Assembly: GCA_025980465.1 (NCBI GenBank) | Contig: JAICXJ010000003.1 | Coordinates: forward strand, 47,549-111,548 | DNA from: Frankiales bacterium | GTDB taxonomy: Bacteria > Actinomycetota > Actinomycetes > JAFAQI01 | Length of the DNA stretch: 64,000 nucleotides | Reading direction: 5' to 3' | In this document: piece by piece, positions 16,303-46,341 of the stretch | Position numbering within the stretch: position 1 is the first letter of the stretch | How the letters are laid out: every line of letters starts with the position of its first letter | Notes under the pieces: generated by a model | Seen by the model: only the letters and a program-made list of their open reading frames with translations | What the model was told of the DNA's origin: nothing | Databases searched by the model: none | Made by a program: the position numbers and the translations under genes

Positions 16303-16360
16303 ACAACCGACGACCGGCAGCGAGATCGCTGCCGGTCGCTGGTGGTGTCTGGGTGAAGAA

Positions 16361-19039: not shown

Positions 19040-19786
19040 ATGACACAGCGTAGCAGCGTCGGCGTTCTTGACAAAGCGGTGACGGTCCTCGACTGCCTCA
19101 CCGCCGGCCCCGCCTCGCTCGCTGAGCTCGTCAGTCGAACCGGACTCTCCCGCCCGACGGCGTACCGACTTGCCGTCGCGCTGGAGGTCCATGGCCTGGT
19201 CGAGCGCGACGGCGACGGCCGGTTCGGGTTCGGACCGCGCCTGCTCGACCTCGCCGGCGCCGGCCGGGCCGATCCGCTGGAGAAGGCGGCTGGGCCGATC
19301 CTCGACAGGCTCTGCGGCCTCACCCACGAAAGCGTGCAGCTGTACCGCCGCGCAGGCTCGATGCGGCGCTGCATCGCGGCCGCCGACCGCGCCAGCGGCC
19401 TGCGCGACACAGTGCCGGTGGGTGCGCAACTCCCGATGACAGCGGGCTCGGCCGCGCAGATCCTCCTCGCCTGGGAGCCCGCCGCCGAGGTCGAAGGAAT
19501 CCTGGCCGAGGCGCGGTTCTCGGCTGCAACCCTCGCCGGGGTACGGCGCCGGGGTTGGGCGGCGAGCGTTGCCGAGCGCGAAGCCGGAGTCGCATCGGTC
19601 TCCGCGCCGGTCTTCGGCACCGACGGCCGGGTCGTCGCGGCGGTGTCGGTGTCCGGCCCGATCGACCGCTTGACCCGCTCGCCAGGAAAGCTCTTCGGCG
19701 ACGCCGTCACGGCAGCAGCGCGAGAGCTGTCCACGGCCGCCGAATATGTACCCTCGAGCGGGTTCGAACCGCCGTTACCGCCTTGA
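19040..19786 (+). CDS. IclR family transcriptional regulator (LtbR-like, divergent from leuCD)
   Basis: N-terminal HTH (LSRPTAYRLAVALEVHGLV) plus IclR effector domain. Only the 3' part of the 810-aa antisense ORF is taken, with the ATG at 19040. Confidence 0.8.
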   Translation: MTQRSSVGVLDKAVTVLDCLTAGPASLAELVSRTGLSRPTAYRLAVALEVHGLVERDGDGRFGFGPRLLDLAGAGRADPLEKAAGPILDRLCGLTHESVQLYRRAGSMRRCIAAADRASGLRDTVPVGAQLPMTAGSAAQILLAWEPAAEVEGILAEARFSAATLAGVRRRGWAASVAEREAGVASVSAPVFGTDGRVVAAVSVSGPIDRLTRSPGKLFGDAVTAAARELSTAAEYVPSSGFEPPLPP

Positions 19787-19821
19787 GAGGGCGGCGTCCT
19801 AGGCCACTAGACGACGAGGGC
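19749..19821 (-). tRNA. tRNA-Glu (anticodon CTC)
   Basis: Hand-folded cloverleaf: GCCCTCG acceptor, GTCTAGTGGCCTAGGAC D-arm, anticodon loop CTCTCAA, T-loop GGTTCGAAC. CCA is not encoded. Confidence 0.8.
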
Positions 19822-19833
19822 AAAGTGATGTCG

Positions 19834-19905
19834 CTGGGGTACCAGGACTCGAACCTAGACTAGCTGAACCAGAATCAGCCGGGCTGCCAATTACCCCATA
19901 CCCCA
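19834..19905 (-). tRNA. tRNA-Gln (anticodon CTG)
   Basis: Hand-folded: TGGGGTA/TACCCCA acceptor, anticodon stem GCTGA/TCAGC with loop TTCTGGT, T-loop GGTTCGAGTCC. Lies downstream of gltX, as in mycobacteria. Confidence 0.85.
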
Positions 19906-26568: not shown

Positions 26569-27642
26569 TTAAGCGAGCCGGGCGGCGATCGCATCTCCGA
26601 TCTCCGCCGTACGGCGCGGTGAGGTGCCGCGCTCAGCCAGGTCGGCGGCTGCGGCCGCCTCGACCCGCAACGACGCCTCGTGGAGCGAGAGCGCGTCGAG
26701 CAGCATCGCGGCCGACAACACGGTGGCGGTCGGATCAGCCACACCCTGGCCGGCAATATCGGGGGCGCTGCCGTGCACCGGCTCGAACATGCTCGGCGCG
26801 GTCCCGTCGACGTTGAGGTTGCCGCTCGCAGCCAGGCCGATGCCGCCGGCGATGGCCGCACCGAGGTCGGTGACGATGTCGCCGAAGAGGTTGTCAGTCA
26901 CCACCACGTCGAAACGCTGCGGCTGCGACACGAAGTACAGGCACGCGGCGTCGACGTGTGCGTAGTCGACGGTGACACCCGGGAAGTCCGGGTGGACCAG
27001 CTCGACGGTGCGCTGCCACAGCGAGCCGGCGTGTACCAGCACGTTGGTCTTGTGCACGAGCGTCAGGTGCTTGCGCGGTCGCGCCGCCGCGCGGGCGAAC
27101 GCGTCACGTACGACGCGCTCGACGCCGTACCGGGTGTTGATGCTCTCCTCGGTCGCGACCTCGTGCGAAGTGCCGGTGCGCATCGAGCCGCCGACACCGA
27201 CGTACGGGCCTTCGGTGCCCTCCCGGACGACGACCATGTCGACCTCGCCGGGCGAGACGCCCGCGAGCGGAGTGGCGACGCCGGGATACAGCTTGACCGG
27301 ACGCAGGTTGACCGCGTGCTCGAACGCGAACCTGAGCTTGAGCAGAAGGCCTCGCTCGAGCACCCCGGATGGCACGCTCGGATCGCCGACCGCGCCGAGC
27401 AGGATCGCGTCGTGGCCGCGCAGCTCCTCCAGCACGCTGTCCGGCAACGTCTCACCGGTGCGGTGCCAGCGCGCCGCGCCGAGGTCGTAGTCAGTGGTCT
27501 CGACCTTCACGCCGTCCGGCTCAACCGCAGCCCGCAGCACCTTCAGGCCCTCGGCGACGACCTCAGGCCCGATCCCGTCTCCCGCGATCACCGCGATTCG
27601 TGCACTGCTCACGGCGAGCGAGAGTAGTCGATCAGCCGACAT
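26569..27642 (-). CDS. leuB: 3-isopropylmalate dehydrogenase
   Basis: [15 protein letters not shown]-terminus and isocitrate/IPM dehydrogenase family motifs. Start set at the internal ATG (MSADRLL). Confidence 0.9.
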
Positions 27643-27680
27643 CCGCTGGCCGAGCGCGGGGGCCGAAACGCGCGAGCGTG

Positions 27681-29652
<1,972 letters not shown>

Positions 29653-32380: not shown

Positions 32381-33976
32381 TCAGTCCTGCGGGAGATATG
32401 CGGCGCGGATCGAGGAGGCGCCGACCGCCGTACCGATCTCGTCGAGAGTGCCGGGAGGGACCGCGGAGTCAACGGTCAGCACCATCAGGGCAGATCCGCC
32501 TACCGCCTTGCGAGAGACCTGCATCCCGGCGATGTTGACCTTCGCTTGACCGAGCAGCTGGCCCACCGTGCCGACGATGCCCGGGCGATCCTCGTAGGTC
32601 GCGAACACCATGTGCTCGTTGATCGCGACTTCGACGTCGAAGCCATTGACCTCGACGAGCTTCTGCACCATCCGCGGCCCGGTGAGGTTGCCGCCGACCG
32701 ATATCACGGTGCCATCGGCCAACGCCCCGCGAACCGTCAACACGTTGCGGTAGTCGGGACTCTCCTCGCTGCTGACCAGGCCGACGTCAATGCCTCGCTC
32801 CGAGGCGAGCAACGGCGCGTTGACGAACGTCACCTGCTCCTCGACGACATCGGTGAAGACGCCACGTAGGGCGGCGAGTGCAAGCACCGAGACGTCGTAC
32901 CCGGCGACCTCGCCCTTGATGTCGACGGTGAGGTTTGCCGGGACCTCCGCCGCCAACGCGGTGAACAGCCGACCCAGTCGTTCGATCAGCGGCAGGCTGG
33001 GCCGGATCTCCTCGGCGACGACCCCACCGACCTGGACGTTGACCGCGTCCGGCACGAACTCGCCGGCCAAGGCCAGCTTCACCGACTTCGCGACCGCCAG
33101 ACCGGCCTTGTCCTGGGCTTCGTTCGTCGAGGCCCCGAGATGCGGCGTCACCACGGCGCGCGGCTCGGTGAACAGCGGCGAATCGGTGCACGGCTCGGTG
33201 CCGAAGACGTCTACCGCTGCGCCGCCGAGTCGGCCCTCCTTCAACGCCTGCGCGAGTGCGTGCTCGTCGACCAGCCCACCCCGGGCGGCGTTGACGATGA
33301 TCGCGCCGGGCTTCACCAGCGCGAGCTCGCGCTCGCCGATGAGGCCCTGCGTCTCCGGGGTCTTCGGCAGGTGGACCGAGATGAAGTCGCTGTGAGCGAG
33401 CAGCTCCTCCAGCGGACCCAGCTGGACCCCTAGCTGCGCAGCGCGGGCGGCCGGCACGTATGGGTCGTAGGCGAGCAGCGTCACGCCGAACGCAGCCATC
33501 CGTTGCGCGAACAGCACGCCGATGCGGCCCAGCCCGACGACTCCGACCACCTTGTCGGTCACCTCGACGCCAGTGAATGCGCTGCGCTTCCACGCGCCGC
33601 CCTTGAGACTCTCGTTGGCCGCCGGGATGTTTCGCGCCGTCGCAAGCAGTAGCGCCACGGCGTGTTCGGCCGCCGAGGTGATGTTGGAGGTCGGTGCGTT
33701 GACGACGAGAACACCGCGGGCAGTGGCCGCGTCGACATCGACGTTGTCGAGCCCGACCCCGGCACGCGCGACGACCTTCAGGCGTGCAGCGGCCTCGAGC
33801 ACCTCGGCATCGATCTGCGTGGCACTGCGCACGATGACCGCATCGACGTCGGCGAGCGCCGGCAACAGGGCGCCACGGTCCGCGCCGTCGACCTGACGCA
33901 CCTCGAGATCCTCGGCGAGCACCTCGAGTGCAGCAGGCGCCAGTTCTTCAGCGACGAGTACGACGGGCTTCGGCAC
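32381..33976 (-). CDS. serA: D-3-phosphoglycerate dehydrogenase (long form with ACT domain)
   Basis: 2-hydroxyacid dehydrogenase NAD-binding motif (GVVGLGRIGVLFAQR), C-terminal ASB/ACT domains; 531 aa. Confidence 0.9.
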   Translation of the reverse strand: MPKPVVLVAEELAPAALEVLAEDLEVRQVDGADRGALLPALADVDAVIVRSATQIDAEVLEAAARLKVVARAGVGLDNVDVDAATARGVLVVNAPTSNITSAAEHAVALLLATARNIPAANESLKGGAWKRSAFTGVEVTDKVVGVVGLGRIGVLFAQRMAAFGVTLLAYDPYVPAARAAQLGVQLGPLEELLAHSDFISVHLPKTPETQGLIGERELALVKPGAIIVNAARGGLVDEHALAQALKEGRLGGAAVDVFGTEPCTDSPLFTEPRAVVTPHLGASTNEAQDKAGLAVAKSVKLALAGEFVPDAVNVQVGGVVAEEIRPSLPLIERLGRLFTALAAEVPANLTVDIKGEVAGYDVSVLALAALRGVFTDVVEEQVTFVNAPLLASERGIDVGLVSSEESPDYRNVLTVRGALADGTVISVGGNLTGPRMVQKLVEVNGFDVEVAINEHMVFATYEDRPGIVGTVGQLLGQAKVNIAGMQVSRKAVGGSALMVLTVDSAVPPGTLDEIGTAVGASSIRAAYLPQD

Positions 33977-33992
33977 CCGCCAACCCTACCCA

Positions 33993-34072
33993 GCGCATGT
34001 GCCATGACTGGCGCTATAGGCCCACGGATGGCACATCCGCGGGGCGCTAGGCCCAGCTATGGCACATGCGTG
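33993..34072. repeat. repeat array: inverted ATGTGCCAT plus two direct ATGGCACAT copies inside about 30-bp direct repeats
   Basis: cgcatgtgccat (33993-34004) pairs with atggcacatgcg (34061-34072). Two copies of ggcgcta(t)aggccca-NNN-atggcacat. Lies between the ilvC stop and the serA start. Confidence 0.5.
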
Positions 34073-34074
34073 CG

Positions 34075-35605
<1,531 letters not shown>

Positions 35606-35645: not shown

Positions 35646-37415
35646 TCATTCTGAAACCACCTCGCCCATTTCGTACTCGAAGTCAGGCGCGGTCTCCCGC
35701 GCGATCTTGATGTCGTCATTCGACGTTCCTGCGGCGACCATCGGCCAGACCATGGCGTCCTTGCCCACGACGAAGTCGATGACGACCGGGAGGTCGGTGA
35801 CCGCCATCGCCTTCTCGATGGTCGCGTCCACGTCGGCAGCGGTCTCGCAACGCAGGCCGACGCATCCCATCGCCTCGGCCAGCATCACGAAGTCGGGCAG
35901 GTACTTCGCGCCGGTCTTCAGGTCGGTGTTGGAGTACCGACCTTCGTAGAACAGCGTCTGCCACTGCCGAACCATCCCGAGTGAGCCGTTGTTGATCACG
36001 GCGATCTTGACCGGGATGCCCTCGATCGCGCAGGTGGCGAGCTCCTGGTTGGTCATCTGGAAGCAGCCATCGCCGTCGATCGCCCAGACCAGTGCATCCG
36101 GCCGGCCCACCTTGGCGCCCATCGCGGCCGGCACCGCGAAGCCCATGGTGCCGAGACCACCGGAGTTGATCCAGGTATAGGGCTTCTCGTACGAGACGAA
36201 CTGCGACGCCCACATCTGATGCTGCCCGACGCCTGCGACGATAACCGTGTCCGGCCCGCACACCTTGCCGATCCGCTCGATCACATATTGCGGTGCAAGC
36301 GTGCCGTCTTCGTGCCCGTCGTACCCCAGTGGGTAGGTGCGCTTCCAGCCGTTGCACTGCGTCCACCACGCCGCGTAGTCGCCGTTGTGCCCGGCCTCGT
36401 GTTCGGCCCGTAGCGCCGCGATGAGCTCGATGATGACGTCGCGGACGTCACCGACGATCGGAATGTCGGCGACGCGGTTCTTCGAGATCTCGGCCGGGTC
36501 GATGTCGGCGTGCACCACCTTCGCGTCGGGTGCGAACGACGAGAGCTTGCCAGTCACCCGGTCGTCGAATCGGGCTCCGAGCGCGACCAGCAGGTCCGAG
36601 CGTTGCAACGCGGTGACGGCGGCGACCGACCCGTGCATCCCGGGCATGCCGAGATGCTGCTCGTTGGAGTCAGGGAACGCACCGCGTGCCATCAGCGTCG
36701 TGACGACGGGCACACCGGAAAGCTCGGCCAGTGTCTTGAGCTCTTCGGTCGCGTGGGCCTTGAGGACGCCGCCGCCGACGTAGAGGACCGGCCGTTTCGC
36801 TTCGACGATCATCCGCGCCGCCTCTCGCACCTGCTTGGCGTGCGGTTTCGCGGCCGGCCGGTACCCGGGAAGCTGCATGTCAACCGGCCACACGAACGTT
36901 GTCTGGGACTGGAGCGCGTCCTTCGCGATGTCGACGAGAACCGGGCCAGGCCGGCCGGTGGCGGCGATGTGGAACGCCTCGGCCAGAACTCGTGGGATGT
37001 CGTCGGCGTCCTGCACCAGGAAGTTGTGCTTGGTGATCGGCATCGTGATGCCGCAGATGTCGGCTTCCTGGAAAGCGTCGGTCCCGATCGCCGCCGATGG
37101 CACCTGGCCGGTGATCGCGACGATCGGTACCGAGTCCATGTAGGCGTCGGCAATTGGGGTCACGAGGTTGGTCGCGCCAGGACCACTCGTCGCCATGCAG
37201 ACGCCGACCCGGCCGGTCGCCTGGGCGTAGCCCGTCGCGGCGTGTCCGGCGCCCTGCTCGTGGCGGACCAGGATGTGCCGCAGCCGGGTCGAGTCGAACA
37301 ACGGGTCGTACGCCGGCAGGATCGCGCCGCCGGGAATGCCGAACACCACCTGGGCGTCGAGTTCCTCCAGCGCGCGCACCATCGCCTGCGCCCCGGTGAT
37401 CCGCTCCTGTGTCAT
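35646..37415 (-). CDS. ilvB: acetolactate synthase large subunit
   Basis: ThDP-enzyme motifs (GGGVL...GDG), 589 aa, followed by ilvN-ilvC. Confidence 0.9.
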
Positions 37416-37607: not shown

Positions 37608-39326
37608 TCAACCGCAGACAGCGCCGATCGCGGCTGACCCGACGAGCTTCACATACTTGGCGAAGACCCCGCTCGGATAGCGCGGCGGCGGCGCCGTCCA
37701 GCCCTTCCGACGTTCCGCGAGCTCGGCCTCGTCGACCAGAACGTCGAGGGTCTTGTTCGCGACGTCGAGCCGGATCCGGTCACCGTCCCGCACGAACGCG
37801 ATCGGCCCGCCGTCGGTGGCCTCCGGGGCGACGTGACCGACGCAAAGTCCCGTCGTACCGCCGGAGAACCGCCCGTCGGTCAGCAGCAGCACGTCCTTGC
37901 CGAGACCCGCTCCCTTGATCGCGCCGGTCACGGCGAGCATCTCCCGCATCCCGGGACCGCCCTTCGGGCCTTCGTAACGGATCACGACGACGTCACCCGC
38001 CTTGAGGTCGCCGTTGGTGACCGCGTCCATCGCGGGCTGCTCGGTGTCGAACACCCGCGCCGTGCCCTCGAAAACCGCCTCGTCGAAGCCGGCCGTCTTC
38101 ACGACTGCACCGTCGGGTGCAAGCGATCCGGTGAGGATGGTCAGACCGCCGGTGGCGTGCATCGGATTGGCCAACTCGCGCAGGACGGTGCCGTCAAGCG
38201 GTGCCGGCGCCAGGTCGTTGAGGTTCTCGGCGACGGTACGGCCGGTCACCGTCATGCACGCACCGTCGAGCAAGCCCGCGTCGAGAAGCGCCTTCATCAC
38301 CACCGGGATCCCGCCGACCCGGTCGACGTCGGCCATCACGAACCGTCCGAACGGCTTGACGTCGGCCAGGTGCGGAGTGCGGTCACCGATCCGGTTGAAG
38401 TCCTCGAGTGTCAGCTCGACGCCGGCCTCGCTGGCAATTGCGAGGAGGTGGAGGACGGCGTTGGTGGATCCGCCGAGCGCCATCACGACCGTGATCGCGT
38501 TCTCGAATGCCGGCTTCGTCAGGATCGTCCGGGCGGTGATGCCCTTCGCGAGCATGCCGATCACCGCCTCGCCGGAAGCGACGGCGTACTCGTCCCTCCG
38601 GCGGTCGATCGACGGCGGCGCGGCGCTTCCGGGCAGCGACATTCCGAGCGCCTCGGCGACGCTCGCCATGGTGTTCGCGGTGTACATCCCGGCGCAGGCG
38701 CCTTCGCCGGGGCAGGCGGCACGCTCGATCGCGTCGAGCTCGTCCTTGCTGATCAAGCCGCGAGCGCAGGCACCGATCCCCTCGAAGGCGTCGATGATCG
38801 TCAGGTCACGATCATCGAGCTTGCCCGGAAGTGACGTGCCGGCGTAGAGGAACACCGAGGCCAGATCGAGCCGGGCGGCCGCCATCAGCATTCCGGGCAA
38901 CGACTTGTCGCAGCCGGCCAACAGCACGGAGCCGTCAAGCCGCTCGGCGAACATCACCGTCTCCACCGAGTCGGCAATGATCTCGCGCGACACCAGCGAT
39001 GCGTGCATCCCTTCGTGTCCCATCGAGATGCCGTCCGACACCGAGATCGTGCCGAACTCCAGCGGCACTCCCCCGGCGTTGCGCACGCCGACCTTCGCCT
39101 GCTGGGCGAGCCGCTGAAGCGAAAGGTTGCAGGGCGTTATCTCGTTCCAGGAAGAGGCGATTCCTACCTGCGGCTTGCCCCAGTCGTCGTCGGTGAGGCC
39201 GACGGCGCGGAGCATCGCCCGGGCGCCGGCCCGCTCGTACCCATCTGTGACATCGCGACTGCGAGGCTTGAGATCCACGTGCGCGAGACTAATCGCAGCA
39301 TCGCTTGCTCCCCCCGCCGGCACCAC
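37608..39326 (-). CDS. ilvD: dihydroxy-acid dehydratase
   Basis: ILVD/EDD family (CDKSLPG, SGGTTG-like and Cys-ligand motifs). Start set at GTG 39326 by analogy with the mycobacterial N-terminus length; the ATG at 39410 lies inside a repeat. Confidence 0.85.
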
Positions 39327-39334
39327 CCGGGTTA

Positions 39335-39450
39335 GCGATGTGACATTGCCTGGCCAGCGATTCGGGCATGCGGGGACGATCAGGGTGCCGCGCCTAGAGC
39401 AATGTGGCATTGCCCGGGGCGCCGCGCGGGCAATGCCACATTGCTTGGCC
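39335..39450. repeat. three copies of a near-palindromic 17-20 bp motif gcRATGYSRCATTGCYYGG upstream of ilvD and downstream of gatB
   Basis: R1 at 39335-39355, R2 at 39397-39419, R3 at 39427-39450. R2 and R3 overlap a perfect 17-bp inverted repeat caatgtggcattgcccg/cgggcaatgccacattg (39400-39443). Confidence 0.5.
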
Positions 39451-39451
39451 G

Positions 39452-40942
39452 TCAGGAAGCTCGCTCGAGGATGAGCTCGCGGGCCCGGGTGGCGTCTGCG
39501 GCCCCTCCGGTCGCCTTCATCACCGCACCGACGATCGGCCCGACCGCACCCTGGTTGCCGTCGCGAATCTTCGCCGCGATGTCCGGCTGCGCGGCGAGGG
39601 CGGCGTCGACAGCGACGATCAGCTCGTCCTCGCCGGCGACCTTCCAGCCGTGGCTTTCGATCACGGCGTCGACGTCGCCTTCGCCTGCGATGACCGCGTC
39701 GGCGACCTGCCGGGCGAGTTTGTTGGTCAGCTCCCCGGAGTCCTCGAGCTCACTGATCCGGGCGACCTGCGCAACCGTGATGGCGAGCTCAGAGACCTCG
39801 ACATCGAGCTCATTGGCGCGGCCGACCAGGTAGCCGAGCCACCAGCCCTTCGACTTCGTCGGCGATGCGCCGGCGGCGATGGTCTCGCCGACCAGGTCGA
39901 GTACGCCGGCATTCACCATCTGCTCGAGGTCGATCGCGGTGAACCCGTTGACCTCGGCGAAGGCGGCGCGGCGCACGCTCGGCGGCTCCGGGAGGGTGGC
40001 GCGCAGACCCTCGACGAGCTCACGCGCCGGTGCGAGCGGCACCAGGTCGGGCTCCGGGAAGTACCGGTAGTCCTGCGCCTCCTCCTTGCTCCGGCCGGGA
40101 CTGGTCGTGCCGCTGTCCTCGTGAAAGTGGCGGGTCTCCTGAACGACCCGTTCGCCGGCGTCGAGGCGTGCACCCTGACGTTCCACCTCGTGGCGCACGG
40201 CGCGCTCGACCGACCGAAGCGAGTTGACGTTCTTGGTCTCGGTGCGAGTCCCGAGCTGGGTCGCCCCGGCCGGCATGAGGGAAAGGTTCACGTCGCATCG
40301 CAACGACCCCTGCTCCATCCGGACGTCGGATACGCCGAGGTCACGAAGTACGTCGCGGAGCTCAGTGACGTACGCCCGCGCCACCTCGGCGGCCTTGTGC
40401 CCGGTGCCCTGAACCGGACGAGTGACGATCTCTACCAGCGGGATCCCCGCGCGGTTGTAGTCGACGAGCGAATGGGTCGCTCCGTGGATCCGCCCGGTTG
40501 CCCCGCCGACGTGAAGTGACTTGCCGGTGTCCTCCTCGAGATGCACCCGCTCAATCTCGACTCGAAACGCCTCGCCGCCCACAACCACATCCAGATACCC
40601 GTCGGTACACAGCGGCTCGTCGTACTGACTGACCTGATAGTCCTTCGGCATGTCCGGATAGAAGTAGTTCTTGCGCGCGAACCGGCACCAGGTCGCGATC
40701 TCGCAGTGGAGCGCCAGCCCGATCTTGACGGTGAACTCGATCGCGGCCTCGTTGGTCACCGGCAAGGATCCCGGCAGGCCGAGGCAGGTCGGGCAGACCT
40801 GCGTGTTCGGCGGAGCGCCGAACGCAGTCGAGCAGCCGCAGAAGAGCTTCGTCGCCGTGCCGAGCTCGACGTGGGTTTCGAGTCCGAGCACCGGCGCGTA
40901 GCGGTCGAGGACGTCGTCATAGGCCCCGAGCGTCGTGGTCAT
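39452..40942 (-). CDS. gatB: Asp-tRNA(Asn)/Glu-tRNA(Gln) amidotransferase subunit B
   Basis: GatB/YqeY architecture, [10 protein letters not shown]-terminal motif; 496 aa. Confidence 0.9.
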
Positions 40943-45333: not shown

Positions 45334-46281
45334 TCATATCAACCGGATCCGAGGATCGGCGAGGGTCAGCGCGATGTCGGCGACGAGGTTGCCGATCACG
45401 ACGAGGATCGCACCTACCAGCGTGTACGCAAGCAAGATCGGATAGTCCTCATTGCCGAGCGCGGTGAAGAACAGCAGGCCGAGGCCCTGGTAGTTGAACA
45501 CGGACTCCACGATCAGATTGCCGGCGAGCAGATCGGGAAGCGACAGCCCCACCAACGTGATGATGGGCAGGCTCGAGTTGCGGGTCAGATGGCGGAACAG
45601 CACCGACCGCTCCGACAGTCCCTTCGCTCGCGCCACCTTGATGTAGTCCTGTGCAAGATTGTCCAACGCCGAGGAACGCATGTAGCGGGAGAACGCCGCC
45701 ACCGAGACGATCACCAGTGCCGAGACCGGAAGAATCATCGATTTGGCGTCCCTGACGACGCCGAAGACCGAGGTCGCTTGACTGGCCTCGAACGGTAACC
45801 AGTTGAGCTTCAGCGAGAAGACGGCGATCAGGACGAGGCAGACGAAAAAGATCGGCCAGGAGTAGAGGAAGAAACTGACCCCGGTCGCGGTGTAGTCGAA
45901 GATCGAGTTCCGCTTGACCGCCTGAGCGATGCCCAGCGGCACTGCGATGAGCACCGCGATGACCAGCGCAACCCCGGATAGCAGCGCGCTACGCCCGGCG
46001 TTCTCCTTGAACAGCTGCCCGACCGACTGGTTCTGCTTGAGCGACTCGCCGAAGTTCAGATGAACGGTCTGGTTGATGTAGGTCAGGAACTGGTGCCACA
46101 GCGGCCGGTCGTAACCGTGAGTGTGGTTGAACGCGGCTACCGCCTGTGGCGTCGCCTTGAGTCCCAGCACAGCCCGCGCCGGAGAGGGATAGACGAGGTG
46201 CAGGGCGGCGAAGATCGCGAGCATCACACCGATGACGACGATGACGGCAGTCGCGGTCCGGCGCAGGATGTAGGTGATCAT
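45334..46281 (-). CDS. ABC transporter permease (DppB/OppB-like)
   Basis: MITYILRRTA N-terminus typical of DppB/OppB; 315 aa. Confidence 0.85.
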   Translation of the reverse strand: MITYILRRTATAVIVVIGVMLAIFAALHLVYPSPARAVLGLKATPQAVAAFNHTHGYDRPLWHQFLTYINQTVHLNFGESLKQNQSVGQLFKENAGRSALLSGVALVIAVLIAVPLGIAQAVKRNSIFDYTATGVSFFLYSWPIFFVCLVLIAVFSLKLNWLPFEASQATSVFGVVRDAKSMILPVSALVIVSVAAFSRYMRSSALDNLAQDYIKVARAKGLSERSVLFRHLTRNSSLPIITLVGLSLPDLLAGNLIVESVFNYQGLGLLFFTALGNEDYPILLAYTLVGAILVVIGNLVADIALTLADPRIRLI

Positions 46282-46341
46282 CCTGCGCCGGACCTAGCAA
46301 CTGGAAAGCCGCACATACCAGGCGTGCTGGGTGCCGGCCGG

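Follow-up and report, generated by a model that had tools for sequence, protein, structure and literature searches.

What are the regularly spaced repeats that separate ilvC from serA in the window, that is, in the whole stretch of 64,000 nucleotides analysed here? A sequence-only reading of this DNA had noted their resemblance to repeats upstream of ilvD and to a half-site at leuC, and had suggested a recognition theme common to the genes of branched-chain amino acid (BCAA) and serine synthesis. The repeats lie in a row of minus-strand genes comprising gatB, ilvD, ilvB, ilvN, ilvC, serA and an alpha/beta hydrolase gene (Table 1). NCBIfam E-values for the genes around the ilvC-serA element range from 1e-69 to 0. 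Along the stretch compared, the window is identical to the MAG contig JAICMQ010000018.1 (GCA_025929175.1), and the closest SerA proteins with a source label come from Mycobacteriales or Frankiaceae MAGs. At gathering thresholds, Rfam searches of the whole window returned only two tRNA matches, which correspond to two adjacent minus-strand genes at 19749-19905.

Anatomy of the repeat arrays in the window

The ilvC-serA spacer is 98 nt long and contains a three-copy array, hereafter element A, which begins 4 nt past the ilvC stop codon and ends 18 nt short of the serA start. The array of ATGTGCCAT and ATGGCACAT cores, the direct repeats of about 30 nt and the outer 12-bp inverted repeat (cgcatgtgccat/atggcacatgcg) described by the sequence-only reading were all found where it had placed them. 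The cores start at 33997, 34028 and 34059, exactly 31 and 31 bp apart. Each tandem unit is made up of a linker, GGCGCTA(T)AGGCCC, and a core. Read along the transcribed strand, a core and a linker come twice in a row before the inverted core, and the middle core forms the tip of the fold. Copy 3 can pair with either copy 1 or copy 2. A larger inverted repeat, the longest in the 64-kb window, has the outer 12-bp repeat at its base; its 37-nt arms (33994-34030 and 34034-34070) are 78% complementary around a 3-nt tip. Folded as RNA, the spacer reaches -62.6 kcal/mol as compared to -50.2 ± 4.1 for shuffled sequences (z = -3.06), a value equalled by none of 200 shuffles. The motif ATGTG-N-CAT was found six times in the 64-kb window as compared to about 0.5 expected from base composition, and all six sites lie in the ilvC-serA and gatB-ilvD spacers. 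Pairs of the motif 28-33 bp apart numbered three in the window and zero in each of 20 shuffles. Chance is no explanation for the array.

Table 1. Features of the window and state of the ilvC-serA spacer in the window and its relatives
Feature	Position	Strand	Description
Alpha/beta hydrolase gene		minus	past serA in gene order; NCBIfam
serA	32381-33976	minus	GTG start 33974-33976; NCBIfam
TAGGGT	33983-33988	minus	6 nt upstream of serA GTG; native sequence, outside element A
Element A, whole	33994-34070	no strand	three-copy array forming one long imperfect hairpin, 77 nt
Element A, core copy 1	33997-34005	plus	exact match to ATGTGCCAT; minus-strand transcript reads ATGGCACAT, the 3′ arm of the outer stem
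Element A, core copy 2	34028-34036	minus	ATGTGCCAT on the minus strand; hairpin tip, own local stem CGGATG-TGC-CATCCG
Element A, core copy 3	34059-34067	minus	ATGTGCCAT on the minus strand; once transcribed, forms the 5′ arm of the outer stem
Element A, tandem units	34010-34070		two units of 30/31 nt, 34010-34039 and 34041-34070, 77% identical
ilvC	34075-35067	minus	stop TAA 34075-34077; ketol-acid reductoisomerase, E 9e-167
ilvN		minus	between ilvB and ilvC in gene order; NCBIfam
ilvB	35646-37415	minus	NCBIfam
ilvD	37608 to about 39275	minus	NCBIfam
Element B, third core	39338-39346	plus	ATGTGACAT; 64 bp from the next copy, without a hairpin partner
Element B	39395-39448	no strand	family member; perfect 19-bp inverted repeat AGCAATGTGGCATTGCCCG/CGGGCAATGCCACATTGCT, 39398-39416/39427-39445
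gatB	39452-40942	minus	NCBIfam
Spacer, L082, L084, L088, L211, L214			empty, 14-23 nt; L082 is the closest relative (SerA 91%; 23 nt)
Spacer, window			same core motif as in relatives, other arrangement and flanks: element A
Spacer, L085			core motif; three GCAATGTGGCATTGC hairpins
Spacer, L086/L087			core motif; two CACCAATGTCACAT copies, 31 bp apart
Spacer, L213			core motif; four ATGTGACAT/ATGTCACAT copies, 32 bp apart
Spacer, L083	450-535 (of L083)		unrelated hairpin; three copies of GGCGTCACG at 30/32-bp steps
Spacer, L215			unrelated hairpin; TGTCAGCG...GCTATAGC...CTGCTGACA
Spacer, L089			DUF2516 gene plus an unrelated hairpin

The second array, element B, is located 6 nt past the gatB stop codon and about 125 nt upstream of ilvD. 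Two of its cores, ATGTGGCAT at 39402 and ATGCCACAT at 39433, stand 31 bp apart inside the 19-bp inverted repeat. The half-site at leuC (cgATGTGAtac, 19015), which had been read as an operator half resembling the core, stands alone and departs from ATGTG-N-CAT. A match of this kind is expected 0.54 times and occurred at least once in 40 of 100 shuffles; the site was rejected as a related element because its frequency is at chance level. It lies about 700 nt from the two tRNA genes.

The three strongest hairpins of the window each start 4-6 nt past a stop codon, those of gatB, ilvC and leuA. The last of them, at 27874-27927, starts 4 nt past the stop of leuA (27931-29649), upstream of leuB (26569-27687), and has 27-nt arms, 85% complementary, with GCTATAGC at the tip. 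It is outside the ATGTG-N-CAT family, giving no match to the family model described below. Its likeness to the hairpin found in the ilvC-serA spacer of L215 (TGTCAGCG...GCTATAGC...GCTGACA) makes a second repeat family probable. Two other inverted repeats of the window, at 46255-46294 and 16303-16346, consist, in the order listed, of a perfect 16-bp repeat with an 8-nt gap and of 21-nt arms that are 86% complementary.

Filled and empty spacers in relatives

Orthologous ilvC-serA junctions were compared in 12 distinct relatives with SerA proteins 82-91% identical. Conservation of the spacer, a check proposed with the sequence-only reading, was not observed: five of the 12, the closest relative included, have a spacer of 14-23 nt without the element. 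Elsewhere the same core motif recurs in another arrangement and with other flanks, or an unrelated hairpin takes its place (Table 1). A family copy occupies the junction in four of 13 genomes and other hairpins do so in three more; thus, seven of the 13 junctions are filled, by three different hairpin families. As random insertion alone does not predict such a filling, the junction may be a hot spot for insertion, or a hairpin may be selected for between strongly expressed neighbours; tolerance of insertions may also account for the repeated filling.

Gain or loss of the spacer element was recent in at least one case, because the serA DNA of L214, with an empty spacer, and that of L086, with a filled one, are 93.7% identical. 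Their junctions read CCGCC-TA and CCGCC-(84 nt)-TA, respectively, and show no target-site duplication. None was found either when the window was compared with the empty site of L082.

The unrelated hairpin of L083, about 85 nt long with two direct and one inverted copy of GGCGTCACG, has the architecture of the window element around a different core, which hints at further families of the same build. In L082, another unrelated hairpin follows gatB. Close relatives also differ in the gene content of the ilv cluster: ilvD and ilvB can be separated by a methyltransferase or a PNPOx-like gene, ilvC and serA by a DUF2516 gene (variable positions: L082 3831-4511; L084 3942-4487; L089 3357-3920; L089 7612-7872). 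A metagenome scan with SerA recovered no relative above 70% identity and rarely an adjacent ilvC, and the ATGTG-N-CAT motif was absent from the approximately 700 kb of these distant loci.

A dispersed family of palindromic repeats in actinomycetes

The pattern ATGTGSCAT-N20-23-ATGSCACAT was scanned in a 596-Gb collection of species-representative genomes and gave at least 120 matches. If base composition is assumed to be uniform, we estimate about 140 chance matches for the whole collection. Of the 120 matches listed, about 100 belong to actinomycetes with 64-75% G+C. Hosts among the matches listed include many Amycolatopsis species, Allokutzneria, Prauserella, MAGs of Streptosporangiaceae, the Mycobacteriales MAGs SMAG_U5570 and SMAG_U5588, a Frankiaceae MAG, Rhodococcus jostii and Mycobacterium nebraskense. 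Some genomes have several loci: at least ten in Amycolatopsis palatopharyngis, at least six in A. suaedae and at least four in SMAG_U5570. The window genome has two within the 64 kb covered. Among the matches listed, the core pair is spaced by 30 bp in 104 cases and by 31 bp in 30, and the 29- and 32-bp classes are almost all chance matches in other phyla. Copies are arranged as +-, ++-, +--, -+- or -++- with a period of 30 or 31 nt. Triples (++-, +--, -+-) spaced 30,30 or 31,31 like element A account for about 20% of the loci among the matches listed.

The family unit consists of two inverted cores, (A)ATGTG[G/C/A]CAT(T), 30-31 bp apart, embedded in flanks that are specific to a lineage yet complementary to each other. 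A typical Amycolatopsis copy reads GTCCCC-AATGTGGCATT-GGGGAC-gttgaac-GTCCCC-AATGCCACATT-GGGGAC. Within a genome the whole unit of about 53 nt is conserved, whereas between lineages the flanks differ and their complementarity is kept. In a 23-pair hairpin aligned over 99 copies, 89% of the cells are paired as compared to 75% in shuffles and 35-42% in slid controls; cells with changes on both sides number 293 as compared to 93. As the flanks of both cores are complementary, a strand can fold into a stem of about 23 bp with a loop of about 7 nt. The flanks of a single core are often complementary to each other too, and a strand can therefore form either a single long hairpin or a series of short ones.

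At five loci of A. suaedae (L129, L142, L158, L159, L197) the hairpin is part of a composite repeat of about 250 nt that contains other small palindromes with 3-nt centres, CGTGAAGG-CCA-CCTTCACG and GTGAGGG-GGC-CCTCAC. Copies at orthologous positions, with the same neighbour genes in different species, were seen in Allokutzneria (L112, L169, L187) and Amycolatopsis (L096, L194). Besides turning over quickly, members of the family can thus outlast the separation of species.

Membership of the window elements was evaluated with a covariance model, R1, built from 99 copies of other genomes and no window sequence. The model matched element B (39395-39448) with 49.2 bits (E 1.7e-11) and element A (33990-34043, the core pair 31 bp apart) with 43.3 bits (E 8.4e-10). 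The kinship between the ilvC-serA repeats and those upstream of ilvD, which the sequence-only reading had proposed, is thereby confirmed. In 139 kb, R1 found both elements, the L085 and L086 spacers and nothing else; the A-centred cores of L213 scored weakly. Element A is identical at 75 of 93 nt (81%) to a triple copy between ligD and ku in SMAG_U5570 (L199) and at 69-72 of 93 to three more copies of that MAG (72/93 for L208), as compared to a mean of 47 and a maximum of 60 for shuffles. Its linker GGGCCTATRGCCC is also present in L095, L130, L199, L208 and L155. Directly after the ligD-ku copy, the closest homologue of element A, runs a series of GGGGTTA heptamers (L199 1080-1110). Overall, both window elements are members of a family with a common anatomy, dispersed over many genomes, biased towards gene 3′ ends and polymorphic in its presence at orthologous sites. 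The family behaves in a copy-and-paste manner, with near-identical paralogues within genomes and both empty and filled orthologous sites.

Gene contexts were obtained with a crude GC3-based ORF caller. About 90% of the copies are intergenic. For the 82 copies with both neighbours called, 31 contexts are convergent (38%), 46 tandem and five divergent (6%), as compared to a background of 93 convergent, 236 tandem and 88 divergent (21% divergent). The nearest stop codon tends to lie about 15-55 nt away. Beside the closest homologues of element A stand ten genes, which code for a radical-SAM protein, GT4, DnaB, LigD, Ku, a MiaB-like protein, DapF, citrate synthase, an aminotransferase and a Lar_N protein. 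Pfam sorts the 66 genes that have a copy directly at their 3′ end into 98 families, no family exceeding three members; Iso_dh occurs once, ilv and serA families are missing, and hence there is no enrichment at amino-acid genes. Because the neighbours are functionally unrelated and the copies lie preferentially at 3′ ends, the distribution is of the REP/BIME type and not that of an operator. The suggested recognition theme common to BCAA and serine genes is thus not borne out, while the relation between the two spacers of the window stands.

The search for a mobilising enzyme in the loci covered gave no candidate. A tblastn search of about 1.7 Mb of loci with approximate queries for IS200 TnpA and the E. 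coli RAYT (YafM) returned noise only. All-against-all clustering of 581 neighbouring ORFs showed no gene family recurring beside the copies, and no transposase is found among the Pfam families listed for the 66 abutting genes. An ORF between two arrays in L153, considered as a transposase, was discarded; judged by eye, it looks like a frameshifted gene of the AbiEi/DUF559 type. No GTAG/CGTC tag was found at a fixed position in the outward-reading flanks. TTAG and CTAA are enriched there, scattered in a way compatible with stop codons. The native GGTAGGGTTGG beside the insertion of element A resembles GGGGTTAGG beside copies of SMAG_U5570. As no motif at a fixed distance was observed across 103 arrays, this likeness was set aside and no target preference is claimed.

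The family seems to be undescribed, its closest known kinds being REP/BIME elements and REPINs. With thresholds on E-value, Rfam gave miRNA-precursor noise only on element A (12-19 bits as compared to gathering scores of 50-124), and no description of the family was found in Rfam or in the literature searched by sequence string and keyword. Surveys of REP elements and HUH enzymes (PMC3733652, PMC12306157, PMC6006769) do not mention the host genera looked for; the RepRanger table has, among Actinomycetota, only three other genomes.

Like the REP/BIME elements of Enterobacteria and Pseudomonas, the actinomycete repeats are short imperfect extragenic palindromes at gene 3′ ends and between convergent genes, occurring singly, as inverted pairs or as short arrays of alternating orientation. 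They also share presence or absence at orthologous sites, the lack of target duplication and stable RNA hairpins within operons, of which the REP hairpin between malE and malF is the classic case. They differ from most described REPs by the missing fixed-position GTAG/CGTC tag, and from REP/BIME elements by an A/T-richer core of 9-11 nt conserved in mid-stem while the rest of the stem is lineage-variable yet complementary, by a period of strictly 30/31 nt, by their high-G+C actinomycete hosts and by the absence of a RAYT match in about 1.7 Mb searched with approximate queries. REPINs, which are REP doublets mobilised by RAYTs, likewise form one long hairpin from an inverted pair and occur as near-identical copies within a genome. 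In contrast to REPINs, no cognate transposase was found for the actinomycete family in the loci searched, and triples and longer arrays of fixed period are common. The hairpin-only 'I-shaped' terminators proposed for mycobacteria are also G+C-rich hairpins directly past a stop codon without a U-tract; however, they are unrelated sequences evolved in place, whereas the copies described here are homologous and share a conserved core.

Transcript ends, the serA start and competing explanations

No U-tract follows the hairpin of element A, and no terminator-like site was found in 33700-34400 or 39150-39600. Classical intrinsic termination is therefore unlikely; termination at hairpins without U-tracts is disputed in actinomycetes. 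Counted on the sense strand in tandem contexts only, G-U mismatches do not exceed A-C mismatches significantly (22 as compared to 18, p = 0.64), which gives no sign of selection on the RNA form of the family. With neither a U-tract nor a G-U excess, we claim neither a classical terminator nor selection on the RNA form.

A sigma-70 promoter scan gave nothing. The arrangement TAGGGT-N6/7-(G/A)TG before serA is kept in the window and in 12 of 12 relatives, with filled and with empty spacers alike. A -10 box at such a distance from the start codon is the geometry of leaderless mRNAs, established for mycobacteria. By its sequence, TAGGGT resembles a -10 box from which serA would be transcribed as a leaderless mRNA, or else a weak ribosome-binding site, and serA probably has its own transcription start there. 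TAGTCT shows the same geometry 7-8 nt before the ilvD GTG (about 39273-39290 in the window, and in L082). Element A covers positions -18 to -94 relative to the serA promoter/start. In the genomes with an empty spacer, the putative -35 region of serA lies inside ilvC.

Taken together, the evidence makes it likely that element A belongs to a family of dispersed palindromic repeats of actinomycetes that are non-coding, similar to REP/BIME elements and REPINs and inserted without target duplication. A regulatory origin would require the cores to be operators phased at three helical turns and bound by an Lrp-like or IclR/NdgR-like regulator of ilvD, serA and the leu genes. The sites are indeed pseudo-palindromic and exactly 31 bp apart; they precede ilvD and also serA, where their centres fall at -25, -56 and -87, and the same core stands in the L085, L086 and L213 spacers, where the rest of the sequence is different. 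Yet the distance to the serA start varies with the genome (-25/-56/-87, -37/-68 or -42/-94/-124), the spacers of five relatives lack the element, and the copies elsewhere lie behind unrelated genes and are depleted from the promoter-rich divergent regions. Moreover, paired cores are always mutually complementary, their asymmetric centre and variable flanks included, as predicted by descent from a hairpin and not by independent operators. We regard an operator array as very unlikely. A riboswitch or attenuator in the 5′ region of serA, to which the alternative pairings of copies 1 and 2 with copy 3 could have lent switching structures, appears extremely improbable: Rfam yields generic hairpin noise, close relatives do without the element, the same element occurs between convergent genes elsewhere, and the conserved TAGGGT-N6-GTG suggests that the serA mRNA begins at the start codon, downstream of the element.

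Two explanations would still place the hairpin at a gene end or treat it as mobile DNA. A terminator or mRNA-stabilising hairpin of ilvC, evolved locally and unrelated to any repeat family, would account for the very stable fold 4 nt past a stop codon and for the unrelated hairpins found at the same place in L083, L215 and L089 and after gatB in L082. It does not account for 81% identity over 93 nt to copies at unrelated loci of another genome or for the match of the family model, and the U-tract is missing; we hold it to be hardly probable, while a stabilising function may be a local effect of the repeat. The terminal inverted symmetry, the dispersed distribution, the presence/absence polymorphism and the longer repeat that surrounds the hairpin in A. 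suaedae would also suit a MITE derived from a classical DDE insertion sequence. Such an origin is very improbable in view of the filled and empty sites compared, which carry no target-site duplication (window and L082, L086 and L214), of a length of 53-77 nt, shorter than that of typical MITEs, and of the neighbour genes, among which no transposase was found.

Returning to the dispersed repeat, we propose that the family would spread as DNA by means of an enzyme recognising the conserved core in the hairpin, and that one copy landed, or was retained, 4 nt past the ilvC stop. Locally, ilvBNC transcripts that run past the stop codon would probably carry a very stable hairpin at their 3′ end, which might hold back 3′-exonucleases, serve as a processing site or terminate transcription in part. 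The TAGGGT box would give serA a transcription start of its own, with element A occupying its upstream (-35) region. That the core has stayed the same from order to order, in Pseudonocardiaceae, Streptosporangiaceae and Mycobacteriales/Frankiaceae MAGs, although the stems drift, points in our interpretation most readily to a trans-acting protein recognising the core within the hairpin. A more specific version is possible but doubtful, namely that the core is the recognition site of a conserved actinobacterial protein, either a hairpin-binding nuclease of the HUH type or a host factor acting at gene ends, and that hairpins are repeatedly captured at operon-internal junctions. If an HUH nuclease did read the core, it would constitute a REP-RAYT-like system in a phylum without a described one. 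Repeated capture at ilvC-serA, if true, would be in line with selection to uncouple neighbouring genes in their expression.

The tempting inference of a shared BCAA/serine operator is removed by these results, the resemblance of the two spacers stemming from a repeat family whose signature is a fixed core of 9-11 nt, a period of 30/31 nt and covarying stems. Its hosts include industrially important actinomycetes such as Amycolatopsis, in which REP-type elements have hardly been described. Repeats of this kind have a bearing on the stability of mRNA, on operon polarity and on the assembly and rearrangement of genomes, and can mislead motif-based prediction of regulons. The relevance of the locus thus lies in the biology of repeats and transcript ends in actinomycetes rather than in amino-acid regulation, and culturable hosts, among them A. 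orientalis and A. keratiniphila, make both a core-recognising enzyme and a role at transcript ends testable.
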